This document shows, piece after piece, positions 847-20,135 of a stretch of DNA of 32,000 nucleotides. The notes below the pieces were generated by a model, which saw only the letters and a list, made by a program, of their open reading frames with translations, was not told the origin of the DNA and ran no database searches. The translations under genes were made by a program, and so were the position numbers. The DNA is taken from assembly GCF_000196355.1 (NCBI RefSeq), contig NC_007614.1:30001-62000 (forward strand), written 5' to 3'. How positions within the stretch are numbered: the stretch's first letter is position 1; each line of letters starts with the position of its first letter. This stretch comes from Nitrosospira multiformis ATCC 25196. GTDB lineage: Bacteria; Pseudomonadota; Gammaproteobacteria; Burkholderiales; Nitrosomonadaceae.

Positions 847-2124
847 TCAAGCGAACAGGTGGGCGATGGTGTAGATCGCCAGGCCTGCCAGTCCGCCTAT
901 CAGCGTGCCATTGATGCGGATGTACTGCAGGTCCTCGCCCACCTGCCGCTCGATGCGGTGCGTCACTGTCTGCGTGTCCCACTCCCGCACGGTGTCGGCA
1001 ATCAGCCTGCCCACATCGCGCTGGTGAGACTGCACCGCTTCCACCAGCACCTCCCGCATCCAGTTATTGAGCCGCTCCCGCAAACCACGGTCCTCAAGTA
1101 CAGTATCGGTGCCCGACTGTATGAGGCCCCGCATCCACCCCCTGATTGCCGAGTCCTCGCTGTCGATGTCCTCGCGCATCCCGTTGCGGAGGTCGCGCCA
1201 GACTCCGTCCGCGTAGTCCCGCAAGGCCGGATGCTCCAGCAGCTTGCGGGTGTGGGCGGCAACCTGCTCGCGATACTCGGGTGAAGTAGCCAGGTCGGAG
1301 GCAAGCTTGCCGATGGCAGCATCCAGTCGCAAGCGCAGGGGGTGGGCAGGGTCGCGCGCGATCTCCGCCACCACCTCGCGCAGGGCTGCCACCACGCTTT
1401 CCCCCACCTTCTCATCCATCGAAAGCCGCTGCCAGAACCAGGCTGTGTTTTCGCGCACCCGCTGACGGATACGGGATTCGTTCGCGGTCACATATTCATC
1501 AGCCTCGCGCAACAGCTTGTCCAGCAGCCGCTGGTGCCGCTTTTCCGCAGTGAGCATCCTCACCGCCTCCCCGAGCAAAGGGCCAAGATCGATGCGCCCC
1601 GCTTTTTCCAGCACCCCGGCCGAAACGAAATGCTGCACATGGCGCTCGTCCACCGAATCCAGCAATTCCGGAATCAGGTGCGTCACATAATCCGCCAGCA
1701 GGTCGGTACGCGCCTCCCCGCACAGCCACGTTGCCAGTTTCCCGGACAAATCCACAGGCGCAAGCTTGGCGGCAACCACTTCGGGAGAAGCAAAGTTGCT
1801 CTCCACGAAGCGTCCCAGCGATTCCCCGATGCGATCCTTGTTACGCGGAATGATTGCAGTGTGGGGAATGGGCAGGCCGAGGGGCTGGCGGAATAACGCC
1901 GTTATGGCAAACCAGTCCGCCAGCGCGCCCACTACCGCAGCTTCGGCAAAAGCGCGAACGTAGCCCATCGCGGGATGAACCGGAAGAAATATGTTGGTCA
2001 GAACGAGAACCGCAAGCATCACCATCAGCAGCGCCGTCGCCAGACGCCCCATCCGGTTATCGGCAAGTGATCGCTTCAGAGAGCTCGTGTGGCGACTCGA
2101 GGCTGACGATTCGATAGGCTGCAT
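847..2124 (-). CDS. DUF445 family membrane protein (YjiN-like)
   Basis: 425-aa ORF. N-terminal TM, then AVVGALADWFAITALFRQPLGLPIPHTAIIPRNKDRIGESLGRFVESNF, which matches the DUF445 signature as I recall it. C-terminal TM GTLIGGLAGLAIYTIAHLF. Confidence 0.8.
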   Translation of the reverse strand: MQPIESSASSRHTSSLKRSLADNRMGRLATALLMVMLAVLVLTNIFLPVHPAMGYVRAFAEAAVVGALADWFAITALFRQPLGLPIPHTAIIPRNKDRIGESLGRFVESNFASPEVVAAKLAPVDLSGKLATWLCGEARTDLLADYVTHLIPELLDSVDERHVQHFVSAGVLEKAGRIDLGPLLGEAVRMLTAEKRHQRLLDKLLREADEYVTANESRIRQRVRENTAWFWQRLSMDEKVGESVVAALREVVAEIARDPAHPLRLRLDAAIGKLASDLATSPEYREQVAAHTRKLLEHPALRDYADGVWRDLRNGMREDIDSEDSAIRGWMRGLIQSGTDTVLEDRGLRERLNNWMREVLVEAVQSHQRDVGRLIADTVREWDTQTVTHRIERQVGEDLQYIRINGTLIGGLAGLAIYTIAHLFA

Positions 2125-2527: not shown

Positions 2528-3013
2528 ATGGCATCCGAAAACTTCAAGAGCAACCTGATCACGGGCTTGGCGGCAGGCGTAGGGGCGACACTGCTCGCGC
2601 CAGTGCTGCTTCCATTTCTTGCCCGCCTCGTCAGGCCCGCTACCAAGGCTGCTATCAAGGGTAGCGTCCTTCTGTATGAGAAAGGACGTGAATCATTTGC
2701 CGAATTGAGCGAAACGGTGGATGACCTCATGGCAGAGGTCAAGTCGGAGATGGAAGCGGGTGCGGTGGAAGATGTGGCGGCGGGTGCCTCGGCAGTTCAG
2801 GCCGGTAGTGCGCAAGGGAGGACTGCCTCACCACCCCCCCAGCCCAGACCGGACTCTGTCGCCGGCCAAAGTTCGGCCACCCCGGCCGCAAGTCCGCCAG
2901 GCGAAGCCGATAAGGCACCGGAAAGTCTCCTCACGCAACCCGCTATGCAGGCGAATCGGGGTAGTCAGCGCCATGAAGAAGCGCAGGATCGACCGCCAAC
3001 CAAGGGGGAATGA
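2528..3013 (+). CDS. small membrane protein: N-terminal TM/amphipathic region (possibly DUF5132-like) plus Pro/Ala/Ser-rich tail
   Basis: 161-aa ORF. SD AAGGTG 7 nt before the ATG. N-terminus NLITGLAAGVGATLLAPVLLPFLARLV is hydrophobic, followed by an acidic helix and a low-complexity tail (ASPPPQPRPDSVAGQSSATPAASPPGEADKAPE). The stop TGA overlaps the next gene's ATG (ATGA, 3010..3013). The DUF5132 assignment is from memory and unverified. Confidence 0.7.
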   Translation: MASENFKSNLITGLAAGVGATLLAPVLLPFLARLVRPATKAAIKGSVLLYEKGRESFAELSETVDDLMAEVKSEMEAGAVEDVAAGASAVQAGSAQGRTASPPPQPRPDSVAGQSSATPAASPPGEADKAPESLLTQPAMQANRGSQRHEEAQDRPPTKGE

Positions 3014-3522
3014 TGGCGCCACTTGCGCGGGTGGTCCACTCTCTGCCGGGCAGGAAGCGGATAAAGATCGACGAAAGGCGCGGCGATACTGCGTACTTTG
3101 AGACGCTGCAAAAAGAACTGGCGGAGTGCCCAGGGGTTGGAGCGGTAGTGACGAATTCGCGGACGGGCACAGCGCTCGTCATCCATAAGGTGGAGGATCC
3201 GGTTCTGTGGCGCTATATCGCGGAACATGGGTTACTTCAGCTCGGAAAGAATGAAACCTCAGCCCCTGCAGTTGGTCCTTCAATCGTCGATGACATCAGG
3301 AACGTCGAACGTAAACCATATCCAAAATCTGGAAAGAAACCAGATATCCGGCGATTGATATTCCTGGGAATGATGGGTATGGGCATCGTGCAGGTAATCA
3401 GGGGCAATATAGCGATCCCGGCGATAGCGGCATTCTGGTACGCGTACTTCATTCTTCCTGCGACGAACGACGATAACCAAGAACATTCCTTCCTTGAAAC
3501 CAAGTTGTCCGAAGAATCCTAG
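3010..3522 (+). CDS. HMA-like (HMA_2-type, CxxC-less) domain protein with C-terminal two-helix membrane anchor
   Basis: 170 aa. N-terminal RVVHSLPGRKRIKIDERRGDTAYFETLQKELAECPGVGAVVTNSRTGTALVIH aligns with 4825..5184 and with the N-terminus of the ATPase. The C-terminus is hydrophobic: RRLIFLGMMGMGIVQVIRGNIAIPAIAAFWYAYFILPA. ATGA overlap with the upstream gene. Confidence 0.75.
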   Translation: MMAPLARVVHSLPGRKRIKIDERRGDTAYFETLQKELAECPGVGAVVTNSRTGTALVIHKVEDPVLWRYIAEHGLLQLGKNETSAPAVGPSIVDDIRNVERKPYPKSGKKPDIRRLIFLGMMGMGIVQVIRGNIAIPAIAAFWYAYFILPATNDDNQEHSFLETKLSEES

Positions 3523-3714: not shown

Positions 3715-4551
3715 ATGAAGACCCCTAGATCAGGCAGGCACGGAGGGGGAAAGCCGCACCCCGAGGAAAAAAAGTGGACCGATAATAATATAGAGACTCC
3801 CGAGGAAGCAAGGTATGCCCGTGGTGAAACACCCCCGGGAGATGAGGGATATGTGGGAACGACACATCCCTATCGCTCGGATGCTGAGCGCGCGATGGGA
3901 GAGGCTGGCCGCACCGTAAAAACAGGCATTGCCAGCAGCTTGAGAGGCATCGATGAAATTGAATCTGATATCGTAAGCCTGGTGCGCAATACCGTATCCA
4001 ATACGTTGAGAGCAACAGGGGCAGTCGGTGCGGAAGCAGTCGATATAACAAGGGATGTCGTCAAGGGTGCTCTTGCCGCCACCGAAGACGTAGGGACCGG
4101 CCTGGCGCTTTCCACAAAAAGCGTTGCCAAGGGGGTGGTAATGGGCGTGTCCGATGTGGGGGGCGACGTTATCACGGCCGCAACAGAAACCGTAAAGGCC
4201 GCAGTCCGCGGTGCTGCTGACGCGGGGGGTGACACGTTGCTGGTTGCCAAGCGAACGGTGGACGGCGTGGCAGAGGGAACGAGGGAGACGGGAGGCAATG
4301 TCGTAGAGATGGTCAGGGCGACCGTAAACGCGGCAGCTGGAGGGATAGGCGATATTGGCACCACCGCTGTCGCGAGCGTGCGCGACATTCTCATGAGTGT
4401 TGTGGAGGGTGTAAAGGACGTGGCAGGCGCCGCAATGCTAAAGTCATATCACCCGGAGGACCGCGTTTCTCCTGGAGAATATACTGCTCCCACGGAGCGT
4501 ACCAATCCGCCAGAATATGTCTCTCCTCCGGAGAGCAAAAAGCCCACGTAA
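3715..4551 (+). CDS. tandem 22-residue-repeat protein (7 repeats), unknown function
   Basis: I chose the internal ATG 3715 of track ORF 3658..4551 because GAGGAGG (3701..3707) lies 7 nt upstream. 278 aa: a charged, probably disordered N-terminus, seven 22-aa repeats (nt 3973..4434), and a C-terminal tail with PGEYTAP/PPEYVSP. No signal peptide or TM seen. Confidence 0.75.
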   Translation: MKTPRSGRHGGGKPHPEEKKWTDNNIETPEEARYARGETPPGDEGYVGTTHPYRSDAERAMGEAGRTVKTGIASSLRGIDEIESDIVSLVRNTVSNTLRATGAVGAEAVDITRDVVKGALAATEDVGTGLALSTKSVAKGVVMGVSDVGGDVITAATETVKAAVRGAADAGGDTLLVAKRTVDGVAEGTRETGGNVVEMVRATVNAAAGGIGDIGTTAVASVRDILMSVVEGVKDVAGAAMLKSYHPEDRVSPGEYTAPTERTNPPEYVSPPESKKPT

Positions 4552-4824: not shown

Positions 4825-5184
4825 ATGGCTCACTATATCCACCATGTCCCGGGCAGATTGCGTGTCAATACGCCGCTCCTCAAAAAAAACGAGCCCGGTG
4901 CCCGGCAGTTGAAATCGTACTTGGAAGGGGTAAATGGTATTCTTCAGATTGAAGCCAGCATTGTCACAGGCAGTGTCGTGATCAGGTATGACAAATGTCT
5001 CGTAAGCTCCACGTCGATTTTAAATTCCCTGCAGGACCTCGGATATATCCAGCATATCGGCACTCTATCCGAATCCGCGAACGGAACTCGGGGAACGCCG
5101 AAGGTCGTGGATATTTTCGTGCAGAAACTCGTGGAAACTGCATTGGAACGGTCGGCTGTGGCTCTGGTCGCAGCACTGATCTGA
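4825..5184 (+). CDS. small stand-alone HMA-like (HMA_2-type, CxxC-less) domain protein
   Basis: 119 aa. MAHYIHHVPGRLRVNTPLLKKNEPGARQLKSYLEGVNGILQIEASIVTGSVVIRYD... has the same HxxPGRxR ... TG..(V/L)I pattern as 3010..3522 and the ATPase N-terminus. GGAGG SD. No CxxC. Confidence 0.75.
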   Translation: MAHYIHHVPGRLRVNTPLLKKNEPGARQLKSYLEGVNGILQIEASIVTGSVVIRYDKCLVSSTSILNSLQDLGYIQHIGTLSESANGTRGTPKVVDIFVQKLVETALERSAVALVAALI

Positions 5185-5229: not shown

Positions 5230-6420
5230 CTAGCGCAGCAATGCAGCCTTGTCCGTGTTCTCCCACGGCAATCCGATATCCATCCGTCCCACCTGCCCGT
5301 AAACCGCAAGCTTGCGGTAAAACAAACCGCGAAATAGTTGAGGCTGATAGCGCAAATTAAAGGCGCGGATGATCCCGGCAGGGCGGAAATCAAACTGGTC
5401 GAGAATACGCGCCGTTATTTCGGTATCAGGAACGCTCCCTGTACCAAAAGTATCCGCCTGCACGCTTACCGGCCTCGATATTCCTATCGAATACGCCAGA
5501 TGTACCTCGCATGCCTGGGCGAGGCCGGCGGCGACTACATTCTTGGCCGCGTAGCGCGCTGCATACGCTCCCACGCGATCGATACGAGAAGGGTCCTTGC
5601 CGGAAAGCGCGGATTCCGAATGCCGGGAATATTCACCGTATGTATCCACTGCGTTCTTGCGGCCAGTCAAGCCGGAATGTAGCGACGGTCCTCCGTCGGC
5701 GACCAGCCCTTCCGGATTGATGAAAATATGGGTGCGGGAGTCGGGCCGCAGCGTCTCCGTTGCGAAAACCGGCTCAATCACATGCGCGTTGAGATCATCG
5801 CGCAGCGGTGCGAGGCCGCGCATGGCGGTCTTCTGCTGAGCGGCAATGATGGTGATGGAATGAATGCGATACGGTCTGCCTTCGCGATATTCCACCCCTA
5901 CCTGCGTTTTTCCATCGGGCGCAAGATAGGGGATCTGCTTCTGAAAACGTGCGGCCGTAAGCCGACGCGCCAGTTTATGCGAAAGCGAGATGGGCAGCGG
6001 CATAAAGGCCGAGCTCTGATTACAGGCAAAGCCGAATACATTGGCCTGGTTCTTGGCAGTAACGGATTCCAGCTCTTCCTCATTCATTTCCCTCTCATCT
6101 ATGAACGGATAAGACGGTGCCGGCAGTTCGCTCAGGCTCGTCATGATCGTGCAATCTCTTGCATTGAAATCCGCTTGCTCGTAGCCAAGCTGGTGTATAA
6201 CCCGGCGCGCAACCTCGGGGATGTCGACAGAAGCCGACGAAGCGAAGCGGGCTGCGATAAAAAGTATTCCCGTGGATACTGCGCACTCCGCTATCACCTT
6301 CGAAAAGGGGTCTTGCTGCAGAAAGCGGTCGACCAACGCATCGCTCACTTGATCGCAAAGCTTATCCGGATGCCCTTCGGTTACAGATTCGGAGGTGAAC
6401 ATGAAATTCTGTTTCATCAT
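5230..6420 (-). CDS. divergent S-adenosylmethionine synthetase (MAT/MetK)-fold protein, probably not the housekeeping enzyme
   Basis: 396 aa. MAT hallmarks are present: TSESVTEGHPDKLCDQVSDA, APDGKTQV, GLTGRKNAVDTYG, SGKDPSRIDRVGAYAARYAAKNVVAAGLA, PWENTDKAALL. Several catalytic motifs are substituted (see findings). Its ATG overlaps the ATPase stop (ATGA, 6417..6420), and an AGGAG SD lies inside the ATPase 3' end. Confidence 0.85.
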   Translation of the reverse strand: MMKQNFMFTSESVTEGHPDKLCDQVSDALVDRFLQQDPFSKVIAECAVSTGILFIAARFASSASVDIPEVARRVIHQLGYEQADFNARDCTIMTSLSELPAPSYPFIDEREMNEEELESVTAKNQANVFGFACNQSSAFMPLPISLSHKLARRLTAARFQKQIPYLAPDGKTQVGVEYREGRPYRIHSITIIAAQQKTAMRGLAPLRDDLNAHVIEPVFATETLRPDSRTHIFINPEGLVADGGPSLHSGLTGRKNAVDTYGEYSRHSESALSGKDPSRIDRVGAYAARYAAKNVVAAGLAQACEVHLAYSIGISRPVSVQADTFGTGSVPDTEITARILDQFDFRPAGIIRAFNLRYQPQLFRGLFYRKLAVYGQVGRMDIGLPWENTDKAALLR

Positions 6421-9400
6421 CCATACTCCTGCGGCGCTGGTGGTAGAGATAGCGGCTCTTTACGTCGCTTGCCTTTGAAGGCAGTCTCTTTGGTTGCTTC
6501 ATTCAGGAAAAAAGGCAGTACAGAACCTGCGCCTATCGCCGCCACATCGAGTGGGCCTATCGGGGTATTACCCAGCAGACTGCGGACGCCTGGCACCAGC
6601 ACCGTAGCCCATTGGAGCAAGGCCGTTCCACCGATCGCCAGATCGAGATAGCGATTGGAGCGGAGCGTCTCGTGGCTGAATATGCCGATATGATCCGAAC
6701 GGCAACTATATGCGTGAAGCAACTGCCCCATCGTCAGGGTCATGAAGGCAATCGTGCTGGCCTTCTGCCCTCCGCCATAACGTGTCATGGCATAGCCATA
6801 ACCGCCCATTGACCCCGCAGCCATTGCCAGCGACTCCAGCCCGTAGCGCTTGAAGTCGGCGGGACCTACAATGGGTTCCGCCGGGTCTCGCGGGGGCTGC
6901 CGCAGCACATCCGGCTCGGGCGGCTCCACAGCAAGCGCCAGCCCGGGGAAGACATCGGTTACCAGGTTGATCCACAGCAAGTGACTGGTGGTGAGCGGAG
7001 TACCCAGTCCTGTCCCTATAGAGCCGAGCATCAGCATGATCTCGGACAGATTGGTGGCGGTAAGGAAATGAATCGATTTGCGAATATTATTGTAAATCGT
7101 CCTGCCTTCCGAGACGGCCACAATCATGGTGCTGAGATTATCGTCTTCCAGTATAACGTCGGCCACGCTGCGCGCCACCTCCGTGCCGGTGCCGCCCATG
7201 GCGACGCCAATGTCCGCGGCCTTGAGGGCGGGCCCGTCATTGATGCCGTCGCCCGTCATCGCGGCGATTTTGCCCCCGCGCTGCAGTGCCTGCACGATTT
7301 GCAGCTTGTTGGCCGGGCTGACGCGGGAGAAGATATTGACCTTTTGGGCAAGCCCAGCCAGGACCTCTGCATCAAGTTGATCAAGCCGGGTGGAATCGAG
7401 AATGTCGAGTTCGCTGCCGCCGGATAACCCAAGTTCCTTCCCTATCGCATATGCAGTGCCGCTCTGATCACCGGTTATCATCACCGTGTCTATCCCGGCC
7501 TGATGAAACAAGGCGATGAGTTCCTTCATCCCCTGCCGCAGGGGATCTGCCATTCCCGTCATTCCCAGCCAGATGAGTTCATCCGCTGAAGATTGATCGG
7601 CTTGTCTCGGTTCGACGTAGGCAAATCCCAGCACACGCAGCGCTTCTGCCGCCATGCGGTCATTTTCCATGAGTATGACCGTTCGCTCCGCCTGCGTGAG
7701 GGGTAAACGCGCGCCGTCCTTCAACCACCACCGACACATTTCCAGCACCTCGACCGGATTACCCTTGACAGCCACGAGCTTTCCCTCCCCTTGCGCGCTA
7801 TGGGTCGTGCTCATGTAGTTCCGGGTTTCGGTACGGTATTCGACTTGCTCTCTGGGATAGCGCCGACGAAGCGCCTCAACTGAAACGCCTGCCGCCAGCG
7901 CAAGGTGCATCAATGCGCTTTCTGTTGGGGATCCCTTGAGCAGATAGTTGCCTTTCTCCCCGTTCAGTTCCACTTCGTTGCAAAGAACAGCCACATGGAG
8001 GAGCCGCAACAATTCATCGCTCTGATAGGGATTGATTCTTATACCCGCATCGTAAAACACATCACTATCCACTGTAATGCGGCGTCCTCCGCTGTACAGG
8101 GCCAGGACAGACATACGGTTGAGAGTGAGCGTTCCGGTTTTGTCCAGGCAGATTACCTGTACTGCGCCCAAGGTTTCCACTGCATCGAGGCGTCGCACCA
8201 GCACCTTGTGACGGTTCATTGTCCGGATACCCAAGGCGAGAGTGGTCGTTGCCACGGTGGGCAGGCCTTCCGGGACAGCGGCCACGGCAAGGGAAATGGA
8301 GGTTTTCAACATTTGCAGCCAAGCGTGACCACGGACCAGCCCGATCAGAAACATGGCTCCGCAAATGCCCAGGGACAGCAACACCATCTGATTCCCCAGG
8401 ATCGCAAGCTGGCGCTGCATAGGTGTTTCCGGAGGGCGCGTTTCACCTACAAGCGATTGAATCATGCCGATCTCGGTATACCGGCCGGTCGAAACCACTA
8501 CTGAGAGGCCGCTGCCCCCCGTTACCACCGTACCCATGTATACCATGTTAAGCCGGTCTGCGAGAGAGACCTCCGGCTTGTCCAACGGGCTCACTCTCTT
8601 CGCCACCGGAAGGCTTTCTCCGGTAAGCATGGATTCATCCATCATCAGATTGCGCGACTCGAGCACCCTGCCATCAGCAGCTACCCGAGCCCCGGGTGTC
8701 AGCACCAGGATGTCGCCCGGCACCAGGGACTTGGCCGGCACCTCCAGAAGCCGTGCATCGCGGATGACCATTGCGTTCTGCTCGGCCACATGTCCGAGCG
8801 CATTAATCGTTCGCTCCGATTGAGACTCGGCAACATAGCCCGTACCCGCGTTGATCAAAACGACTCCGAGGATCACGGCCGCATCGAGCAGTCCTCCAGT
8901 GGCTGCGGAAAGGACAGCGGATACACCGAGTAAAGCCACAGGCAGGCTTTTAAACTGCCCCAGAAAAATGCTCAGCCCGGAACGGGGCGGCGTCTCCGGT
9001 AGGCTATTGACCCCGAAATAGCCAAGCTTCCGCTCCACGGAAGCTTGGCTAAGACCGAATTCCATGGAAGTTTCAAGCGCAGCCACCACGGTATCGCCAG
9101 GCAAGGCATGCCAATTTTTACGATCCTGTAGAAGAACTGAATCGGGATCAGAAGAAATGACGGGAGAAGCAGGACGTCCGGAGGCACGCAAAAAACGGCC
9201 ATCGTCTACCGGGTTCCCGGGAATGATTTCATGCCCGGCCTCCAACAGCAGTTGCTCCAACCAGGTCTTGATTTCTTCAAGGTCGCGTGCCGGATCAAAA
9301 ACGATCAATACCCGGCCCGTGAGAATGTTCGCGGAAGCATGTCTGATCGCATCATGCCTCGGCAGGGCAGACTCGAGCTTACGCCTGACGGACTCCGATC

Positions 9401-9539
9401 GATACAAACCCCGTACCTTAAGCCTTGCGCGGCCCCCCACAGCTGCATGAACGATGCGCACCGGTTCGGGAGGCTCGGCTTCAGTCGCACCTGTCCCGAA
9501 GAAAGAAGGGCGTTGCATCTGGTCGAAAAGTAGAGACAT
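6417..9539 (-). CDS. P2-type (SERCA/PMCA-like) cation-translocating P-type ATPase with N-terminal CxxC-less HMA-like domain
   Basis: 1040 aa with the motifs TGESLPV, ICLDKTGTLT, MITGDQ and TGDGINDGPALKAADIGVAMG. TM4 is AVPEGLP (not the CPx of heavy-metal pumps). TM6 is LLWINLVTDVFPGLALAVEPPEPDVLRQPPRDP. A Cation_ATPase_N-like segment WHALPGDTVVAALETSMEFGLSQASVERKLGYFGVNSL is present. N-terminal residues ~27-98 (nt 9246..9461), RIVHAAVGGRARLKVRG...NILTGRVLIVF, form the HMA-like domain. The start codon is uncertain (alternative Met8). Confidence 0.9.
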   Translation of the reverse strand: MSLLFDQMQRPSFFGTGATEAEPPEPVRIVHAAVGGRARLKVRGLYRSESVRRKLESALPRHDAIRHASANILTGRVLIVFDPARDLEEIKTWLEQLLLEAGHEIIPGNPVDDGRFLRASGRPASPVISSDPDSVLLQDRKNWHALPGDTVVAALETSMEFGLSQASVERKLGYFGVNSLPETPPRSGLSIFLGQFKSLPVALLGVSAVLSAATGGLLDAAVILGVVLINAGTGYVAESQSERTINALGHVAEQNAMVIRDARLLEVPAKSLVPGDILVLTPGARVAADGRVLESRNLMMDESMLTGESLPVAKRVSPLDKPEVSLADRLNMVYMGTVVTGGSGLSVVVSTGRYTEIGMIQSLVGETRPPETPMQRQLAILGNQMVLLSLGICGAMFLIGLVRGHAWLQMLKTSISLAVAAVPEGLPTVATTTLALGIRTMNRHKVLVRRLDAVETLGAVQVICLDKTGTLTLNRMSVLALYSGGRRITVDSDVFYDAGIRINPYQSDELLRLLHVAVLCNEVELNGEKGNYLLKGSPTESALMHLALAAGVSVEALRRRYPREQVEYRTETRNYMSTTHSAQGEGKLVAVKGNPVEVLEMCRWWLKDGARLPLTQAERTVILMENDRMAAEALRVLGFAYVEPRQADQSSADELIWLGMTGMADPLRQGMKELIALFHQAGIDTVMITGDQSGTAYAIGKELGLSGGSELDILDSTRLDQLDAEVLAGLAQKVNIFSRVSPANKLQIVQALQRGGKIAAMTGDGINDGPALKAADIGVAMGGTGTEVARSVADVILEDDNLSTMIVAVSEGRTIYNNIRKSIHFLTATNLSEIMLMLGSIGTGLGTPLTTSHLLWINLVTDVFPGLALAVEPPEPDVLRQPPRDPAEPIVGPADFKRYGLESLAMAAGSMGGYGYAMTRYGGGQKASTIAFMTLTMGQLLHAYSCRSDHIGIFSHETLRSNRYLDLAIGGTALLQWATVLVPGVRSLLGNTPIGPLDVAAIGAGSVLPFFLNEATKETAFKGKRRKEPLSLPPAPQEYG

Positions 9540-9838: not shown

Positions 9839-9883
9839 TATAATTCAAGCTCAGGCACTGTGCCTGATGCCTCAAGGCATCAG
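9839..9883 (+). promoter_or_regulatory. perfect -10 box followed by two overlapping palindromes (candidate operator or 5'-leader structure) upstream of the flavoprotein gene
   Basis: TATAAT at 9839..9844. TCAGGCA (9851..9857) ctg TGCCTGA (9861..9867), and CTGATGCCT (9864..9872) ca AGGCATCAG (9875..9883). The two palindromes share CTGA. They lie 67-99 nt upstream of ATG 9950. Confidence 0.35.
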
Positions 9884-9949
9884 ATTCGGGTTCCACCAGG
9901 TTTCGCAAGCTCCTTGAAGCACGAGGTCACCGGGGTAACGGGAGAAAAA

Positions 9950-11914
9950 ATGCCGGGCAATACATCCCATACACAGAAATCGGAAATAAATGATCTGGTA
10001 ATTGTCGGCGGCGGTATTGCCGGACTCTATTGCTGCCACGAGCTTATCAAGAAAGTCCGGAGCGGCTCGCTCGATATCAGGAGCATTCTCCTTCTGGAAG
10101 CTTCCGACCGGTTTGGCGGGCGCATCGAAACGTGGTCCCTGCTGAGAAGCAGTGAGGAAAATGGAAAGAAGATCGGTTTTGAAGATACATGGGACCCGTG
10201 TAACTGGAACATCGATAACGGTTGCCTTGCTCCCCCTGACCCGCAAACGGGTAAACAGTCTCCATTCAAAGGTCCGACAGAAAAATCATTCAGGAATGTG
10301 GATGGCAAGGATGTCGAAAAGCTGACCGATATCGAATACTTCCGCGCGGAATTCGGGCCCATGAGAATCGAACCGCGGGACCAGATTTTATTGCAGGGAT
10401 TGCTCGACGATCTTGGAATCAGGGAGCCTGACCCGGGGGAGGAAGAAAGCCTGGATGACCTCGTGCCGTTCTCTTCGTACACCTCCGAAGATCCGATGGC
10501 GCCTCGCTTCACCCTTCAGGAGGAGGAAGCACAGCAGAAAACTCCTTTTGACCTGATGATACTCGCTCTCAGGCGCATCTTCGAGCTCGTCCAAGGTCCG
10601 AAATTCGACGGCCCGGCTTCGAATCCCTGGTGTACGGAAGCCGCCAATGAACAATGGAGAAAATTGCACAGCGCGCAGTTCTTTTATCGCCATTACTGGA
10701 AGGGAGAGCTGCTCGAATGGATACAGTACCTTACCGATCCTGACTTCGTAACGATTCGGGAGCATGCGCGGTTCAGGGACCAGCCGTTATGGGACCTGGG
10801 ATTCTGGAACGTCCTCAGCGACGTCTTGAGCCATTATGCGGTGGTCAAGATCAGGGATTGGGGAAGTTACTATCACTTTGTCCACGAAAATCTGAATGCC
10901 GCCGAGTGGATCATCTTCTGGCTCAGGGCAATTCGAAGCACAGGTTCGCTTCGAGGCATACGCGGAGGGATGAGCAGGATAATCTGGAACCTGCTGGAAG
11001 TCTTGCGGAAGCACCAGAACAGTCACCAATCTCCTCGTCTGAAAATCGCGAAAGGCTCGAGGGTGGTGAGCGTAGAAAGACGGGATGATGCGCTGGTTGC
11101 CCTTACCGTGCAGAATGAGGATGAGGTCGAGCTTGTGTGCGCACGAAGAGTCATTTTTGCCCTGCCGAAGCGTCCGCTCGAGGAAATGTCATGGAATGGG
11201 GAACATCCAAAAGGCAAGCTTCACGAAGCATTCAATGCGGTCGTTTGCCTTCCGCTACTGAAATGTTTTTTCGTCATCGAGAAACCCTGGTGGGAAGACA
11301 ACCGGTCTCTCAACCGCCATGCGTCCGACATACCAACCCGCGAGTTGCTGTATGTGAAAAGCAGGGACCGGACAAAAGGGTTGATCATGATTTATACCGA
11401 TCGCCCGGCAATCACATTCTGGTCCGATTATCTCAGAAGCGAATCCGGCAATAATTCCAAAGGTCCCGAGCAACCGGAGGGGCCGCAGGTCGACTATCAG
11501 GATGCCGCCAGGATCTGGTTCCTGGAGAAAAAACCTTCCCCGACGTGCGGTTCGATCATCGAAATCAAGCCCGGATCGGCTCGCCTATGGCAGCGTTTCG
11601 TGCAGTTTGCCAGGGATTATGAGCACCATGACTTTACCACGGGCCGCCTTCTCGCCTGCGGGATGCGCGACTGGGGAAAGGAGCCTTTCGGCGCCGCAGC
11701 GCACGGGTGGCGTCCGGGTGTAAAGTCCCGGGAGCATATCGAGTTTCTCGAGGCATTTTCTCTCGAACAAGAGGAGCAGGAAACCGGGCAAAACAACCTG
11801 CATGTTTGCGGAGAAGCATTTTCTGACTACCAGGGATTTATTGAAGGCGCGCTGCGATCAGCGCAGCGCGTGCTGGTTGTGATAGAGGAACAGCAGGAGC
11901 CGGGAAAAAGCTGA
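9950..11914 (+). CDS. FAD-dependent amine / L-amino-acid oxidase (monooxygenase) family flavoprotein
   Basis: I chose ATG 9950 (GGAG at 9941..9944) rather than GTG 9860. Dinucleotide fold DLVIVGGGIAGLYCCHEL ... LLLEASDRFGGRIETW. AEFGPMRIEP and IRGGMSRI resemble LAAO/tryptophan-2-monooxygenase motifs. C-terminal LHVCGEAFSDYQGFIEGALRSAQRVL is the typical flavin amine oxidase tail. Confidence 0.8.
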   Translation: MPGNTSHTQKSEINDLVIVGGGIAGLYCCHELIKKVRSGSLDIRSILLLEASDRFGGRIETWSLLRSSEENGKKIGFEDTWDPCNWNIDNGCLAPPDPQTGKQSPFKGPTEKSFRNVDGKDVEKLTDIEYFRAEFGPMRIEPRDQILLQGLLDDLGIREPDPGEEESLDDLVPFSSYTSEDPMAPRFTLQEEEAQQKTPFDLMILALRRIFELVQGPKFDGPASNPWCTEAANEQWRKLHSAQFFYRHYWKGELLEWIQYLTDPDFVTIREHARFRDQPLWDLGFWNVLSDVLSHYAVVKIRDWGSYYHFVHENLNAAEWIIFWLRAIRSTGSLRGIRGGMSRIIWNLLEVLRKHQNSHQSPRLKIAKGSRVVSVERRDDALVALTVQNEDEVELVCARRVIFALPKRPLEEMSWNGEHPKGKLHEAFNAVVCLPLLKCFFVIEKPWWEDNRSLNRHASDIPTRELLYVKSRDRTKGLIMIYTDRPAITFWSDYLRSESGNNSKGPEQPEGPQVDYQDAARIWFLEKKPSPTCGSIIEIKPGSARLWQRFVQFARDYEHHDFTTGRLLACGMRDWGKEPFGAAAHGWRPGVKSREHIEFLEAFSLEQEEQETGQNNLHVCGEAFSDYQGFIEGALRSAQRVLVVIEEQQEPGKS

Positions 11915-11918
11915 GTTT

Positions 11919-13004
11919 TTATCCAGTCTTTTGTTTCCGCAGAAAAGACAGCACGGCAGACTCGAGCGGGTCATGGGCGGCATGCGCCGCTTCTTCCATT
12001 TCCTGCACGCAGCGATGAAGATCGCCTTTCTGCCAGGCAGAAAACACCGCCGGATTGATGTAGGATTTCCGGCAGACGGCAGGGGTATTGCGCAGATCTT
12101 CCGCGACTTGCCGTATCGCCGCAACGATGCCGGCCTTGAGAGCGCGCTTGGTCGGGAATTCAGGCAACGGCGTATTGAGCATGATTTCGAACGCCCGCAA
12201 GGTTCCGCTCCATGTTCGGAAATCCTTCGCGGTAAATTCGGCTTCCATGACTTCGTGGAGGTAGGCGTTTACCTGCTCCGCTCCGACCGGCCGTCGCTTG
12301 CCGCTCTCATCCAGGTACTGGAAAAGATGCTGGCCCCTCAGCTCTTGGCAAGCCCGGATAATGGTGATGATGCGCCTGTCACCGATCGTGACTTCGTGCT
12401 CGACCCGGCTCTTGCCCCGGAATTTCAATAATGCGCGCCTGGGGTTGATGAAGGCAAGATGCCGCTTGCGCAGGGTTGTAAGTCCGAAACTGTGGTTATC
12501 GCGGGCGTAAGACAGGTTACCGATGCGCACTTGCGTCGTATCAAGCAGTCTCACTATTGCAGCAACAACCTTTTTTTGCGGCAAACCTCGTTTTTTCAGA
12601 TCAAGGTGTACACGCTCACGCAGTTGAGGTAAAGCTTCGCCGAATTCCACCATGCGGTCAAATTTGATGCTGTCCCGCACCGCGCGCCAATCGGAATGGT
12701 AGCGGTACTGCTTGCGGCTGCGCGCATCCAGTCCGGTGGCCTGCAAGTGGCCCAGAGGATGAGGGCAAATCCAGACGTCGGTATAAGCGGGAGGAATGGC
12801 GAGCCGGGCAATGCGCTCAAGCTCGCCCTTATCACTCAAGGGCTTTTCATCCGGACCGACATAACGAAATCCCTCGCCGGAGGCCAACCTTCTGATCCCA
12901 GGCTCATCGCCGGAGACATAGATCAACCCCGCGGCCGCCGCTTGCGCCGCCAGAATTTCCACCGCCTGGGGCCGCAACTCCTCCTTATTCGGAGAGAATG
13001 ACAT
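11919..13004 (-). CDS. DNA topoisomerase IB (bacterial, poxvirus-like)
   Basis: I chose start ATG 13004 (MSFSPNKEE) with an AGGAG SD 7 nt upstream. GFRYVGPDEKPLSD..ERIARLAIPPAYTDVWICPHPLGHLQATGLDARSRKQYRYH is typical of bacterial TopIB. The C-terminal CRKSYINPAVF carries the SYIxP catalytic-Tyr motif. Confidence 0.85.
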   Translation of the reverse strand: MSFSPNKEELRPQAVEILAAQAAAAGLIYVSGDEPGIRRLASGEGFRYVGPDEKPLSDKGELERIARLAIPPAYTDVWICPHPLGHLQATGLDARSRKQYRYHSDWRAVRDSIKFDRMVEFGEALPQLRERVHLDLKKRGLPQKKVVAAIVRLLDTTQVRIGNLSYARDNHSFGLTTLRKRHLAFINPRRALLKFRGKSRVEHEVTIGDRRIITIIRACQELRGQHLFQYLDESGKRRPVGAEQVNAYLHEVMEAEFTAKDFRTWSGTLRAFEIMLNTPLPEFPTKRALKAGIVAAIRQVAEDLRNTPAVCRKSYINPAVFSAWQKGDLHRCVQEMEEAAHAAHDPLESAVLSFLRKQKTG

Positions 13005-13319
13005 ATGGTTACTCCTGTCGCAGGCTGGTTGTAACAAAGTCAGTATGTCAAGCAGTTTGGAAAACGAAAAACAGGGGATTCGAAGGTCAGGCGCCAGGGT
13101 ACTGCCAAGCAGCAGACTGGATACGCTTCTATCGACAGCAATGATAGCCTTCCGGTTCCATCCTTTTGGAAGGGTAAAAACCAGGAAGAAAACTTTATCT
13201 GTCCTGACTGGTTTTCTTCATTTATGGAGATATTTAAGCGAGGCATCACCTCGGTGATTGCTCAAAGCGTTCGCATATTCCTTATCTGGTAGGTTGGAAT
13301 TTCCAAGGGGGCGATGGGG

Positions 13320-13870: not shown

Positions 13871-14449
13871 ATGACCAATGCTAATCAACGCAATCAACGC
13901 AAGAAGCAGCCCGCTCTCGTTCGTCGCAGGTTACTGGATAACGGTGCCCGTCTCTGTGTGGAGCAAGGTGTGGCGGGTTTGACACTACAAGCGGTGGCGG
14001 ATGCGGCAGACGTAACCAAGGGAGGGTTGCTGCATCACTTTTCAACCAAGCAGGCGCTTATCGAGGAAATCTTCAGCGAGCGCCTGCAAGCCTTCGATAC
14101 GAGCATCAAGCAGGCAATGAAGCTCGACCCTGAACCATCCGGCTGCTTTACCCGCGCTTACATCACCGCGACGCTGGAGCTGATCGAGAAGGATGATTTC
14201 ATTCAGTGGGCGGCCCTCATGATGGCGATGCTGACCGAGCCCGGCTTGAAGAAACGGTGGACGCAGTGGCTGGAACAGAGCCTGGAACAACACCGGGATA
14301 CTGATTCCGCCCCCGAAATGCGGCTGGCCCGTTATGCCGTTGACGGACTTTGGCTGGCAGGCCTGCTCGATGAGGAGGAACGGGTGGCGACCAAACGCGA
14401 AGCACTGCATCTGCATTCCCAATTGATCGAGATGACAAGAAAACCATAA
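13871..14449 (+). CDS. TetR/AcrR family transcriptional regulator
   Basis: 192 aa. N-terminal HTH RRRLLDNGARLCVEQGVAGLTLQAVADAADVTKGGLLHHFSTKQALIEEIF. Sits directly upstream of the RND efflux genes. Confidence 0.85.
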   Translation: MTNANQRNQRKKQPALVRRRLLDNGARLCVEQGVAGLTLQAVADAADVTKGGLLHHFSTKQALIEEIFSERLQAFDTSIKQAMKLDPEPSGCFTRAYITATLELIEKDDFIQWAALMMAMLTEPGLKKRWTQWLEQSLEQHRDTDSAPEMRLARYAVDGLWLAGLLDEEERVATKREALHLHSQLIEMTRKP

Positions 14450-14616
14450 CTCAGTCATTGCAACGTCAGGCCTCGGATCCGCCATTATTCCGGGCCCCGC
14501 TAAAGCCGTTTCTTCATTATGCTGGCCTCCCGTCAAGTCGTTTGAAGCAGGTACTGTCAGGCGTACGTGCTAAAAGCCGCCGAAGAAGGCCGGATCAACT
14601 TCCTTTCCCCGGAGAC

Positions 14617-15792
14617 ATGCGTTTCATAAACCTTATTACGACCATTTTCATTGCTCTCTCGACAATCTTCCTTGCCGCATGCAGCAATACGGAATCCAGC
14701 ACTTCGGTCGAGCCGCCCCCACCCGATGTTGCGGTTGCGGACGTCCTGTCGCGCTCCGTGCGAGCATGGGACGAATTCAATGGACGTGTCCGTGCGGTCC
14801 CGACTGTAGAGTTGCGTCCTCGGGTCAGTGGCTACATCGATCGGGTTGCCTATAAGGAGGGTAGCGAGGTCAAACCTGGCGATCTTCTCTTTGTCATCGA
14901 TCCCCGTCCGTACCGCAACGCACTCCAGAGTGCGCAGGCGCAGCTCGAACATGCGCGGGCGGCTGCAAATCTCGCCCAAAGCAGGACTGAGCACGCGCAG
15001 GCACTGTTCGCAGCACAGGCCATGTCGCGCGAAGAATTCAACGGCAGGCAAACGGAGTTGAACCAGACGATTGCCGAGGTGCGCGCAGCGGAAGCCGCTG
15101 TAGCCACAGCCAAGCTCAACCTCAATTTTACCGAGGTTCGAGCACCGATCGCAGGCCGCGTGGGGCGAGCATACCTGACTGCCGGCAATCTTGCGCAGGC
15201 TGACCAGTCGATCCTGACAACCCTGGTCTCGCAGGATCCGATGTACGTGTACTTCGACTGCGATGAACATAACTTCCTGCGCTACAAGGAATTCGCGCGC
15301 AAGAACGATCGCGAGAGCAATGTTTATCCGGTCCGCATCCGTCTGGCCAATGAGGAAGGTTTTTCGCATCACGGGACTGTAGATTTCTTCGACAATCAAC
15401 TCAATCCCGCAACGGGAACAATTCGTGTCCGCGCTGTCGTTGCGAACGCCGACCGGGCGCTGACACCTGGTCTTCACGCTCGAGTGCAGCTGCAAGGCGG
15501 CGATGTGTTGCATGCACTCCTGATCGACGATAAAGCCATCCTGACCGACCAGGACCGCAAATATGTCTATGTATTGGGGGAGGGCAACAAGGCGCTCCGC
15601 AAGAACATCACATTGGGTCGGCAGGTGGATGGCCTCCGTATCGTACAGTCCGGCCTCGACACGACGGACAAGATCATCGTCATCGGCGCGCAGAAGATCT
15701 TTCACGACGGGATGACCGTAAAGCCCCAGCACGTCGCCATGGAAACGAGAGCGGCTATTCCCCCCTCTACGCTCCTGAAAGCAACGGAATAA
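14617..15792 (+). CDS. efflux RND transporter periplasmic adaptor (MFP) lipoprotein
   Basis: I chose the internal ATG 14617 of track ORF 14458..15792: MRFINLITTIFIALSTIFLAAC/SN has a signal peptide and lipobox. RVSGYIDRVAYKEGSEVKPGDLLFVIDPRPY and a coiled-coil hairpin are typical of AcrA/MexA-type adaptors. Confidence 0.85.
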   Translation: MRFINLITTIFIALSTIFLAACSNTESSTSVEPPPPDVAVADVLSRSVRAWDEFNGRVRAVPTVELRPRVSGYIDRVAYKEGSEVKPGDLLFVIDPRPYRNALQSAQAQLEHARAAANLAQSRTEHAQALFAAQAMSREEFNGRQTELNQTIAEVRAAEAAVATAKLNLNFTEVRAPIAGRVGRAYLTAGNLAQADQSILTTLVSQDPMYVYFDCDEHNFLRYKEFARKNDRESNVYPVRIRLANEEGFSHHGTVDFFDNQLNPATGTIRVRAVVANADRALTPGLHARVQLQGGDVLHALLIDDKAILTDQDRKYVYVLGEGNKALRKNITLGRQVDGLRIVQSGLDTTDKIIVIGAQKIFHDGMTVKPQHVAMETRAAIPPSTLLKATE

Positions 15793-15801
15793 GGGAACGG
15801 T

Positions 15802-18800
15802 ATGGACTTTTCCAGGTTCTTCATCGACCGTCCCATATTTGCCATCGTTCTTTCGATCGTTATTTTCGCGGCGGGACTCATCGCCATCCCGCTCCTGCCT
15901 GCGGGCGAGTATCCGGAAGTGGTGCCTCCAAGCGTGGTTGTGCGTGCAATGTATCACGGCGCCAATCCCAAAGAGATCGCGGATTCAATCGCCGTTCCCC
16001 TGGAAGAAGCGATCAACAGCGTCGAAGGCATCATGTATATGAAGTCCGTTGCGGGCTCCGATGGAAGCCTGCAAGTGACGATCACCTTCACGCCCGGCAT
16101 CGATCCCGATACCGCGGCCGTCCGCGTACAGAATCGCGTCGCCCAAGCCCTGTCCCGTCTGCCCAACGACGTACGCCAGTATGGCGTAACCACGCAGAAG
16201 CAATCCCCGACTCCGCTCATGTACGTGAATCTTTCTTCACCCGACGGTCGCTACGACGCGGTCTATCTGCGCAACTATATGACGCTGAATATCAAGGACC
16301 AGCTTTCGCGCCTGAAGGGGGTTGGCAACGTCGGATTGTACGGGGAAGGCGATTATGCGATGCGCCTGTGGCTCGACCCGAACAAGCTCGCCGCACGTGG
16401 CTTGACAGCCAGCGATGTGGTGGATGCCGTTCGCGAGCAGAACGTTCAGGTATCCGCAGGTCAACTGGGCGCCCAGCCATCACCCAGGAGCGCGGATTTC
16501 CTCGTTCCGATCAATGTTCGTGGACGGCTTCGCAGCGAGCAGGAATTCGGCGACATTGTCCTGAAAAGTGCCGATGATGGCCAATTGGTCCGCCTGGCGG
16601 ATGTTGGGCGCGTCGAGCTCGGCTCCAGCGATTACACGCTCCATGCCATGATCGATAACAGGGGCAGCACTAGCGCCGGAATTTTTCTGACTCCCGGCGC
16701 GAACTCCCTGGAGGTGGCCAGGACGGTCTATGCCAAGTTTGAAGAACTTGCAGCAAGCTTTCCTCCGGGTATCGAGTATCGGGTGGTGTGGGACCCCAAT
16801 GTTTTTGTCCGGGATTCCATCCGGGCCGTGGGTCAAACACTGATCGAAGCGGTCTTCCTGGTCGTGCTGGTGGTCATTCTCTTTCTGCAGACTTGGCGCG
16901 CATCGATCATCCCCCTGATTGCGGTGCCGGTCTCGATTATCGGCACGTTTGCCTGGCTCTACCTTCTCGGATATTCCATCAATACGCTGACATTGTTCGG
17001 ACTGGTCCTGGCAGTGGGGATTGTCGTCGACGATGCGATCGTCGTCGTGGAGAACGTTGAGCGCAATATCGAGGAAGGTCTGAGTCCTCTCGCGGCAGCA
17101 CACCAGGCCATGAAGGAAGTCTCCGGTCCGATCATCGCCATTGCGCTGGTGCTATGCGCCGTGTTCGTGCCCATGGCCTTCCTGAGCGGTGTCACGGGGG
17201 AGTTCTACAAGCAGTTTGCCGTCACCATCGCCATATCCACCGTCATTTCCGCGATCAATTCGCTCACACTGTCCCCGGCACTGGCGGCAAAACTGCTCAG
17301 AGGACATGATGCTCCGAAGGATGCGCCTACCCGAGTGCTCGAGCGCAGCCTGGGATGGTTGTTCCATCCGTTCAATCGGCTGTTTCTTCGCAGCTCCGGC
17401 AAATACCAGAGCACGGTAGCCCGAACACTGGGCCAGCGCGGCAGGGTGTTTACCGTCTATGCAGGACTATTGCTCGCAACAGTCATGCTATTCCATATCG
17501 TGCCGACCGGCTTTATTCCAAATCAGGACAAGCTCTACCTCTTTGCAGGCGCCAAATTGCCGGAGGGCGCTTCGCTTGCCCGTACTGACGCCGTCACACG
17601 TCAATTAAACGACCTTGCCAGCAGTATCGAAGGCGTGGAAATGACCGAAAGCTATGTTGGCATGAATGCGTTGCAGTCAGTCAACACGCCCAATCAGGCG
17701 GCCTCCTACGTTATCCTCAAGCCTTTTGATCAACGCCGGCGTTCCGCAGAATCCATCACCGCTGAACTGAATGCCAGGCTTGCCGACATCAAGGACGGGC
17801 AAGCCTATGCATTACTGCCTCCGCCTATTCAAGGACTGGGCAATGGGTCGGGCTATTCGCTCTATTTGGTCGATCGCGGCGGTCTGGGATATGGGGCGTT
17901 GCAAAGCGCAACCACAAAATTCCAGAACGCGATTGCGCAGACGCCAGGCATGACTTTTCCTGTCAGCTCATACCAGGCCAACGTCCCGCAACTTGAGGTC
18001 AAGGTGGATCGGGTCAAAGCCAAGGCCCAGGGAGTAAATTTGACGGACCTCTTCAATACGTTGCAGGTCTACCTTGGATCCTTCTACATCAACGATTTCA
18101 ATCTATACGGTCGCGTCTATCGGGTGATGGCACAGGCGGATGCAGCTTTCCGCCAGAATGCTGAAGACATCAACAATCTGTATACACGCAATAGTCGAGG
18201 AGAAATGGTTCCGCTAGGGTCGATGGTGACGATTCAACATACTTTTGGTCCGGATCCCGTCATCCGCTACAACGGTTATCCCGCTGCCGACCTTATCGGG
18301 GATGCGGATCCCCGCGTACTTTCCTCGGGACAAGTCATCGCCAAGCTATCGGAAATTGCTACGGAGGTACTGCCCCCCGGCATTACCCTGGAATGGACCG
18401 ACTTGAGCTATCAGCAGGTCACCCAGGGCAACGCGGCAGTCATCGTCTTCCCATTATCGATCATGCTGGCCTTTCTGGTGCTGGCCGCCCTCTATGAGAG
18501 CTGGACATTACCCTTGGCAGTCATCCTGATCGTGCCGGTATGCATGTGCGCCGCGCTTTTCGGGATCTGGCTCACAGGCGGGGACAACAATATATTCGTA
18601 CAGGTGGGACTGGTCGTACTGATGGGTCTGGCATGCAAGAATGCCATCCTGATCGTTGAGTTTGCACGAGAACTGGAGATTCAGGGCAAGGATACCATCG
18701 AAGCCGCACTGGAAGCCTGCCGCCTTCGACTTCGGCCGATTGTGATGACTTCGATCGCCTTCATCGCTGGATCTGTTCCCCTAGTGCTCAGTCAGGGTGC

Positions 18801-19829: not shown

Positions 19830-20135
19830 CTTACCCCCATGGATAGTGAAAAAATAGAACCTGGTGCCATCTTATCTACATCACATCGGATTCCTATTGG
19901 ACTTAAGTACACCCTGTACTTTGGTACAAGGCGATGGGAGCGGGGAGACAGCCTTGCTCTAATACTCGTCTAATGACGTTCCGCTCCCATCGAATTCCCG
20001 CCTTATCCGGACAGAAGTCGTCATTGCCGCTATCAAGATACTCATCTCAGCCGGTTGGTTGTCATGAGCCTGCCGGAGGGAATGGTGGAGAAGGGCATGA
20101 TAGAATCCAGGCTCCACCCGAATTTTGGTATTGCC

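Follow-up and report, generated by a model that had tools for sequence, protein, structure and literature searches.

A MetK-like paralog with a rebuilt methionine site is the fixed downstream partner of a CoBaHMA-bearing P-type ATPase

The window analyzed here is a stretch of 32,000 nucleotides from Nitrosospira multiformis ATCC 25196 (contig NC_007614.1, positions 30,001 to 62,000); coordinates are window positions unless another locus is named. It contains two adjacent genes on the reverse strand, one for a P-type ATPase (the pump) and, downstream of it, one for a protein with the fold of methionine adenosyltransferase (MAT), the S-adenosylmethionine (SAM) synthetase that is called MetK in bacteria. 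An earlier note, made from the sequence alone, had singled out this second gene as a MetK paralog coupled to the pump. The central features of the locus are the following:

6417..9539, reverse strand: P2-type (Ca2+-ATPase-like) P-type ATPase, 1040 amino acids, with an N-terminal CoBaHMA domain (HMA_2, PF19991), identified by Pfam, motifs and PDB matches
6415..6432, reverse strand: coupling junction, with an AGGAG Shine-Dalgarno motif in the last codons of the pump gene and an ATGA overlap, identified from the sequence
5230..6420, reverse strand: MetK-like paralog, 396 amino acids, with the H238/R269 signature; triphosphate/Mg/K site kept, methionine site rebuilt

The TGA of the pump gene and the first ATG of the MetK-like gene overlap by four nucleotides (junction ...GCAGGAGTATGGATGATGAAA), a second ATG follows directly, and AGGAG is located five nucleotides upstream. 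The stop/start overlap and the AGGAG within the pump's last codons, both described in the earlier note, are thus seen at the junction. Long open reading frames of up to 307 amino acids (e.g. window 5728-6651, forward strand) lie antisense to the MetK-like and pump genes; they are not supported by homology and most likely reflect no more than base composition.

The MetK-like protein matches all three Pfam S-AdoMet_synt domains (N, M and C; PF00438, PF02772 and PF02773) with E values of 1.7e-33, 7.3e-34 and 2.4e-51, and MetK proteins in the PDB match it with E values of 1e-90 or better. It is 42% identical to E. coli MetK in the alignment and carries a 7-residue insertion near its C-terminus. 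A structure predicted with AlphaFold from 35 relatives has a pLDDT (predicted local distance difference test) of 76, with low confidence in segments 248-274 and 357-385, and Foldseek superposes the model on E. coli and L. plantarum MetK with TM (template modelling) scores of 0.83-0.88. The motifs by which the earlier note had recognized the MAT fold from end to end (GHPDK, APDGKTQV, GLTGRK..VDTYG, SGKDPSRIDR, AYAARYAAKNVVAAGLA and PWENTDKA) are all present in the translation, in agreement with Pfam, PDB and model. On TIGR01034, the NCBIfam equivalog model for metK, the protein scores 358 bits and is above the cutoff of 309.4 bits, about 230-310 bits under the canonical MetKs, which reach 584-667 bits. 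Members of its family score 248-390 bits and are found on both sides of the cutoff. Because family members can clear it, all close relatives carry the database name methionine adenosyltransferase (RefSeq, JGI).

To describe the active site we use the residue numbers of E. coli MetK for the MetK-like protein as well. The E. coli reference sequence agrees with the alignment from the PDB search and scores 667 bits on TIGR01034. All ligands of Mg2+, K+ and triphosphate are kept in the MetK-like protein (H14, D16, K17, E42, D163, K165, R244, K245, K265 and D271). The other part of the site differs: T43C, E55R, Q98L, S99P, D118N, T227E, F230V, D238H, F262L and K269R. Three of the changed motifs had been named in the earlier note, and the residue-by-residue alignment bears them out while adding further changes: GAGDQG is TAKNQA (D118N), GGPMGDCG is GGPSLHSG (D238H), and HGGGAFSGKD is HSESALSGKD, in which GGG259-261 is replaced by SES (SES or SGS in the family). 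Thus, the catalytic residues are not all conserved, and one of those listed, K269, is arginine across the family. The gating-loop motif QSxDIxQGV is gone, with ELPAPSYPFID in its place. The earlier note had taken this region for an acidic insert replacing the gating loop. The loss of the motif stands, but the segment is only five residues longer than its E. coli counterpart, and it is not distinctive, the aligned segment being variable and also long and acidic in many canonical MetKs.

The conservation of these residues was tabulated for 121 close relatives, for 16 family representatives against 75 canonical ones, and for 46 members found via the pump. Among the 121 close relatives R55, H238, R269 and L262 are invariant, and N118 and C43 are present in 115 and 120, respectively. 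The same relatives have H14, D16, K17, E42, D163, K245, K265 and D271 without exception and R244 in 120 cases. Of the adenine contacts, T227 has given way to D or E in every one of the 121, and F230 remains in 70. The 46 full-length members that were found independently, via the pump, show the same pattern, both for the altered residues (H238 in 45, R269 in 45, L262 in 44, C43 in 44) and for the retained ones (H14 in 45, D16 in 46, R244, K245 and K265 in 46 each, D271 in 44). Over the whole family, E55 is replaced by R or H and D118 by N, H or E, and D163 is usually kept, whereas the approximately 75 canonical representatives all have T/V43, E55, Q98, D118, F230, D238, GGG, F262 and K269. The triphosphate/Mg/K half of the site is therefore strongly constrained, and another fixed residue set has taken over the methionine half. 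Several distant family clusters combine E42-C43 with H55, H118 and H238 at the K+/amino-group site, an arrangement rich in Cys and His that resembles a transition-metal site.

The roles of the replaced residues are known from human MAT. Glu70 and Asp258 (E. coli E55 and D238) hold the amino group of methionine, and Gln113 (Q98) contacts its carboxylate (PMC6850014). The mutant Ser114Ala (S99) has 2.5% of the activity left, which makes this serine essential, and Asp258Gly and Lys289Asn (D238 and K269) form less SAM with phosphatase activity unaffected (PMC6850014). Likewise, mutants of the E. coli gating loop have a kcat lowered more than 200-fold, and their hydrolysis of tripolyphosphate (PPPi) is unaffected (PMC6850014). 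Because the substitutions of the MetK-like family fall on residues whose mutants behave so in MAT, SAM synthesis has very probably been lost in this family, and triphosphate binding or hydrolysis would have been retained. With E55, D238, Q98, S99 and K269 replaced and fixed in the family, the view of the earlier note that this is not the housekeeping SAM synthetase is supported. A methionine- or SAM-binding role, which it had also considered, is unlikely, since the methionine ligands are the very residues that were replaced. Nor is the gene a decaying copy, because relatives in several phyla, 121 in all, carry these substitutions as fixed states.

Relatives were searched among 5.8 billion proteins and cluster representatives among 1.84 billion. 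The MetK-like protein is 96% identical to N. multiformis proteins, and relatives with 67-70% identity were found in Ca. Manganitrophus, Thermodesulfovibrionales, Nitrospiraceae, Thiobacillaceae, Binatia and a Limnocylindrales metagenome-assembled genome (MAG), so that this level of identity is held across Nitrospirota, Proteobacteria, Chloroflexota and Binatia. At least 15 clusters (50% identity) share a signature consisting of C43, R/H55, the absence of Q98 and D118, H238, L262 and R269. In a neighbour-joining tree calculated after removal of the signature columns, 14 of the 15 representatives that bear the signature group into a single clade (34 of 40 bootstrap replicates) with the outlier P0269 excluded; the near-variants P0124 and P0136 and the frameshifted P0150 fall inside it. 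The clade was not recovered by midpoint rooting, nor by rooting on E. coli with all 15 signature-bearing representatives. As judged from these sequence comparisons, the MetK-like proteins are a single-origin and widespread paralog (sister) family of the MAT fold. A scan of genomes with query-specific patterns, which was not aimed at the canonical metK of the same genome, returned only family members and unrelated canonical MetKs, and a plasmid collection contained only canonical MetK copies with less than 50% identity.

The earlier note had proposed a coupling between the MetK-like gene and the pump, and this linkage was investigated in both directions. In the forward direction the window proteins were compared with fetched loci by tblastn. 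A homologous pump is encoded directly upstream in all 23 loci that have a relative of at least 39% identity, that is, in every locus with a MetK-like protein at least 53% identical and likewise in four distant clusters at 39-48%. The loci at 53% or more include those of Nitrosospira, Nitrosovibrio, Geobacteraceae, Methylomonas rivi, Methylobacter, Manganitrophus, the Limnocylindrales MAG and Thermodesulfovibrionales. Since the 23 loci include two near-identical pairs counted separately (L002/L003 and L004/L005) and related Nitrosospira loci, the locus counts are not fully independent. Upstream of canonical metK, a homologous pump was found in none of 65 loci. The distance from pump stop to MetK-like start ranges from an 11-nucleotide overlap to an 8-nucleotide gap in 19 of the 23 loci, distant lineages included.

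In the reverse direction, metagenomes were scanned by ATPase motifs only and the downstream gene was scored afterwards. Pumps at least 47% identical, with the CoBaHMA N-terminus and enough downstream sequence, are followed by a MetK-like gene in 34 of 35 cases, and same-clade pumps with the N-terminus cut by a contig end in 9 of 9. The proportion is 4 of 9 for pumps with a CoBaHMA N-terminus and less than 47% identity, and 1 of 10 for pumps that lack this N-terminus. The 46 full-length downstream partners found in this way carry the family signature. Furthermore, the identities of pump and MetK-like protein co-vary over 64 loci (r = 0.93), with the MetK-like protein better conserved than the pump (mean identity 60% versus 52%). 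Taken together, a single clade of CoBaHMA-bearing P2-type pumps has the MetK-like gene as its fixed partner downstream, and the pair is usually translationally coupled. The coupling proposed in the earlier note thus holds in both directions and across phyla.

The catalytic motifs of a P-type ATPase are all present in the pump (DKTGT, TGES, TGD and GDGIND), and it matches the Pfam families E1-E2_ATPase, Hydrolase and Cation_ATPase_N/C. Its best relatives in the PDB are SPCA1, Listeria LMCA1 and SERCA (E 1e-142 to 1e-118). Eight homologues all have E424, N830, E833, N858 and D862, and the window pump also has T861; we take E424, N830, E833, N858, T861 and D862 to correspond to SERCA E309, N768, E771, N796, T799 and D800. 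Within the CoBaHMA domain, the pump N-termini share H31, G36, R37, R39 and R47 without exception. The pump has the catalytic motifs in common with SERCA, SPCA1/PMR1 and LMCA1, together with putative Ca2+-site residues in M4, M5 and M6, but differs from them in the additional N-terminal CoBaHMA domain, the lack of an equivalent of E908 and the obligate MAT-fold partner.

The pair is part of a larger cluster, conserved across phyla, that encodes a DUF5132 protein, a CoBaHMA protein with a hydrophobic tail, a helical-repeat protein, the CoBaHMA pump, the MetK-like protein and a small CoBaHMA protein. In the window, the remaining genes of this cluster and the gene bordering it are:

847..2124, reverse strand: DUF445 membrane protein (Pfam), which borders the cluster in all Nitrosospira and Nitrosovibrio loci
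2528..3013, forward strand: DUF5132 protein, 161 amino acids (PF17195), first gene of the divergent half of the cluster; conserved in the cluster
3010..3522, forward strand: CoBaHMA protein with a hydrophobic C-terminal segment, 170 amino acids (HMA_2, E 9e-11); conserved in the cluster
3715..4551, forward strand: helical-repeat protein without Pfam family, with nine helices, Gly-rich turns and disordered Pro-rich ends
4825..5184, forward strand: small single-domain CoBaHMA protein, 119 amino acids (HMA_2, E 1.8e-12), convergent with the MetK-like gene

All three HMA_2 matches of the window show the H-x2-x-G-R-x-R motif. Since the stop of the DUF5132 gene overlaps the start of the CoBaHMA membrane-protein gene by four nucleotides (ATGA), the divergent half of the cluster would also be translationally coupled. 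The small CoBaHMA gene is kept beside the pair in loci L001, L002 and L004 and in many metagenome loci. The helical-repeat protein is 50-59% identical across phyla within the cluster; its model has nine helices (pLDDT 73), and the only PDB matches are de novo designed helical repeats. A homologue is encoded between phasin and WS/DGAT/acyl-reductase genes in Noviherbaspirillum autotrophicum (L172 9001-9708), a hint that the protein may resemble phasin-like inclusion-surface proteins; in other cases the homologue is joined to a MucR/ROS DNA-binding domain, and its gene adjoins a DUF5132 gene (L173 8001-9077). The DUF445 gene may be an occasional, perhaps lineage-specific, member of the cluster, since a 34%-identical homologue is located directly downstream of the MetK-like gene in the unrelated, distant metagenome locus L145 (~8257).

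The CoBaHMA domain is a variant of HMA with a conserved basic patch. It was first recognized in calcyanin, which serves as the marker for cyanobacteria with amorphous CaCO3 inside their cells. The calcyanin gene of Microcystis, ccyA, and cax, a Ca2+/H+ exchanger gene, are flanked by DUF5132 and CoBaHMA genes that are co-expressed with them (bioRxiv 10.1101/2024.07.07.602159). Common to these neighbourhoods and to the cluster described here are CoBaHMA (PF19991), DUF5132 and an adjoining Ca2+ transporter, which is cax there and would be the P2 ATPase here. They differ in that the transporter is a pump and not an exchanger and in that it is nitrifiers, methanotrophs, Nitrospirota and others that carry the cluster here, instead of cyanobacteria. 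Among the Pfam matches of the window and the loci, none pointed to a calcyanin with its (GlyZip)3 C-terminal domain; the helical-repeat protein, soluble and amphipathic, is not a glycine zipper. The part of the CoBaHMA literature that was covered does not mention an adenosyltransferase or a MetK-like gene, and with that coverage the literature gave no account of a MAT paralog tied to a P-type ATPase. To our knowledge, no P-type ATPase with an obligate MAT-fold partner has been described. Docking of the acidic loop of the MetK-like protein on the CoBaHMA basic patch was considered as a family feature and rejected: loops of distant members are short and basic, and those of canonical MetKs are also acidic.

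Genes for phosphate and divalent cations occur near the cluster in part of the loci. Among 59 loci with short flanks, neighbours were pstS (7 loci), an OmpR-type regulator (8), DUF3562 (5) and MgtE or CorA (at least 4); pstCAB/phoU, PhoH, PsiE, PhoU_div and an ArsA-HSP20 ATPase were also found in some loci, and the Methylomonas rivi cluster includes Na_Ca_ex and PhoU_div genes. A scan for promoters and terminators gave nothing above chance.

Three further observations concern the MetK-like gene and its surroundings. In a single case, the Methylobacter locus L020, it is directly followed by genes for the pyrimidine/purine nucleoside phosphorylase Ppnp (11266-11577) and an NYN-domain protein (11582-12055); Ppnp would be a possible link to adenosine as a product. 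In P0176, a member of the core clade (L091 80-1018), a HIT domain is fused in frame to the N-terminus, on a single 1-kb Logan contig that could be an assembly chimera, so the fusion is anecdotal. The window also encodes MetH, the B12-dependent methionine synthase (1270 amino acids, 20055-23867, forward strand), 14 kb from the MetK-like gene. This proximity was discarded as a functional link: in other lineages metH shows no synteny with the cluster, so the arrangement is probably a coincidence.

We favour the explanation that the MetK-like protein is a dedicated cytoplasmic partner of the pump which keeps triphosphate cleavage or binding and does not make SAM, and our confidence in it is evenly divided. 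The protein would act in the cytoplasm, at or together with the pump, as a Mg-dependent enzyme of the triphosphate site. As a best guess among hydrolase, transferase and sensor, the likeliest activity would be the tripolyphosphatase half-reaction of MAT, PPPi to pyrophosphate (PPi) and phosphate (Pi). The built-in Arg55 and His238 may stand in for the ammonium group of the substrate. Hydrolysis of PPPi at a site with two Mg2+ ions would be shared with canonical MAT, in which this half-reaction survives the loss of SAM synthesis (PMC6850014). The source of PPPi may differ, since canonical MAT makes it in situ from ATP. The fold is unrelated to that of the triphosphate tunnel metalloenzymes. A methionine-independent conversion of ATP to adenosine and PPPi may also be possible, because H14 and D163 are kept. 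Judged by its neighbourhoods, the whole cluster probably handles both phosphate and a divalent (Ca2+-like) cation, and may do so at an inclusion or compartment inside the cell.

A far more specific version, which we regard as speculative and quite unlikely, would make the MAT fold a methionine-independent ATP-to-triphosphate (or PPPi/polyphosphate) enzyme physically attached to the CoBaHMA Ca2+ pump. It would form the cytoplasmic arm of a bacterial system, so far unrecognized, that sequesters Ca with phosphate or carbonate. The inclusion, acidocalcisome-like or a biomineral, would have CoBaHMA/DUF5132 proteins in its membrane and a coat resembling phasin, and the tri- or pyrophosphate formed would chelate Ca2+ or stabilize amorphous mineral.

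Several points weigh against the favoured explanation of a triphosphate-handling partner. The tripolyphosphatase activity is extrapolated from mutants of canonical MAT, and the change of GGG to SES or SGS beside the triphosphate site could be detrimental to triphosphate chemistry. Several distant family clusters have another residue in place of K165. H14 and D163, which are conserved, serve C5'-O cleavage and ribose binding, so adenosyl transfer may have been retained. A rationale that would tie a cytoplasmic tripolyphosphatase to a pump exporting cations from the cytoplasm is missing. On the side of the pump, a Ca2+-like cation is read from site residues, and we call it an inference because the position of SERCA E908 is G or Q and no NCBIfam equivalog cutoff is reached (the best, PMR1-type, with 606 versus 798 bits). 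A canonical metK is not among the open reading frames of the 32,000-nucleotide window. With regard to phosphate, the Nitrosospira cluster is not adjacent to pst, and the pst association may be limited to one sub-lineage; a search of the window with the E. coli Pho box consensus gave three weak matches against 2.5 expected, none of them intergenic.

Retained adenosyl transfer leads to an unlikely but coherent alternative, an adenosyltransferase with a new acceptor. ATP would be cut at C5'-O, PPPi released and the adenosyl group passed to an anionic nucleophile without an alpha-amino group, and the product would be used by the pump system or would regulate it. H14, the acid catalyst at O5', is invariant, D163 at the ribose nearly so, K165 is kept in the core clade, and position 230 has F or another hydrophobic residue in most members. 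The replacement of the acidic amino-group ligands by basic ones is fixed and not arbitrary, and a pocket of R55, H238, R269 and N118 would fit an anionic acceptor; the downstream Ppnp gene in Methylobacter and the HIT nucleotide-hydrolase domain on the 1-kb contig point the same way. However, the cluster offers neither a candidate acceptor nor a conserved product-using enzyme, the gating loop that would close over an acceptor is lost, and the adenine contacts are not conserved (T227 is D or E throughout, F230 is G, R, S, P or Q in distant members); the replacement of K165 in distant clusters counts here as well. The strict pairing with the pump, the translational coupling and the co-variation of the two genes are what one expects of subunits of a complex, and would also suit a non-catalytic regulatory or scaffold subunit, that is, a pseudoenzyme that senses ATP, PPPi or polyphosphate or forms an oligomeric platform docking on the pump or the CoBaHMA proteins and gates transport. 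The disrupted Gly-rich loop, the acidic loop of the core clade and the CoBaHMA basic patch, for which binding of anionic partners has been proposed, are in line with such a role. Yet Mg2+/triphosphate ligands that are near-invariant across clusters only about 40% identical would be unusual for a purely structural role, though compatible with ligand sensing, and the acidic loop is not a feature of the whole family, being short and basic in distant members. We rate this pseudoenzyme as rather improbable.

A divergent but active second SAM synthetase for a local or conditional SAM supply appears highly improbable. It would account for the complete fold, the score of 358 bits against the 309.4-bit cutoff, the name in RefSeq and JGI and the metH gene 14 kb away. 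Against it, E55, D238, Q98, S99, D118 and K269 are all replaced, and matching single mutations lower or nearly abolish SAM synthesis by human MAT (PMC6850014). In addition, canonical MetKs score about 230-310 bits higher, the cluster has no conserved gene for a methyltransferase or another SAM-using enzyme, and metH is not syntenic in other loci. Compared with bacterial MetK (EC 2.5.1.6), the MetK-like protein has the same three-domain fold, the same Mg2+/K+/triphosphate ligands, H14 and D163, but its family is a separate clade in which the methionine ligands, the gating loop and the Gly-rich loop are altered, and its gene lies behind a P-type ATPase and not in a housekeeping context. Because several of these defining active-site features fail despite fold and HMM (hidden Markov model) score, we do not file the protein as MetK.

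A cation pump made together with a protein that may act on the ATP or phosphate pool, as the favoured explanation would have it, has an analogue in mgtCBR, where a P-type cation ATPase shares its transcript with a factor that decreases ATP or restricts the uptake of phosphate. CorA/MgtE and Pho genes near some of the loci add to this likeness. It is an analogy only: MgtB is of type P3B and MgtC does not have the MAT fold, so that neither the MetK-like protein nor the pump is homologous to its counterpart.

The clade is auto-named methionine adenosyltransferase in nitrifiers, methanotrophs, Manganitrophus, Thermodesulfovibrionales and others, and this name is probably wrong. Since the name is given via the metK cutoff, metabolic reconstructions may count a probable non-SAM-synthetase as a SAM synthetase. 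MAT has been regarded as a fold with one reaction. A deep and conserved MAT branch in which the acceptor pocket was rebuilt and the triphosphate site stayed intact would be a natural test of how far the half-reactions can be separated, and the clade may reveal a new adenosyl-transfer or triphosphate reaction. The pairing of pump and MetK-like protein also gives a handle on CoBaHMA domains and DUF5132/CoBaHMA clusters, which have so far been tied only to intracellular carbonate formation in cyanobacteria.

The remaining genes of the window include a flavin amine-oxidase-family protein of 684 amino acids with long insertions (9860-11914, forward strand), which is divergent from the pump and syntenic only in Nitrosospira and Nitrosovibrio. 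It is followed by a bacterial type IB DNA topoisomerase (Topoisom_I and Top1B_N_bact; window 11919-13037, reverse strand), an enzyme of patchy occurrence in bacteria. Ordinary neighbours (13871-18930, forward strand; 26539-28701, reverse strand; 19143-19829, reverse strand) are a TetR regulator, an RND pair (HlyD-like and AcrB-like), SpoT/RelA, guanylate kinase, an SRAP peptidase and a PEP-CTERM protein.

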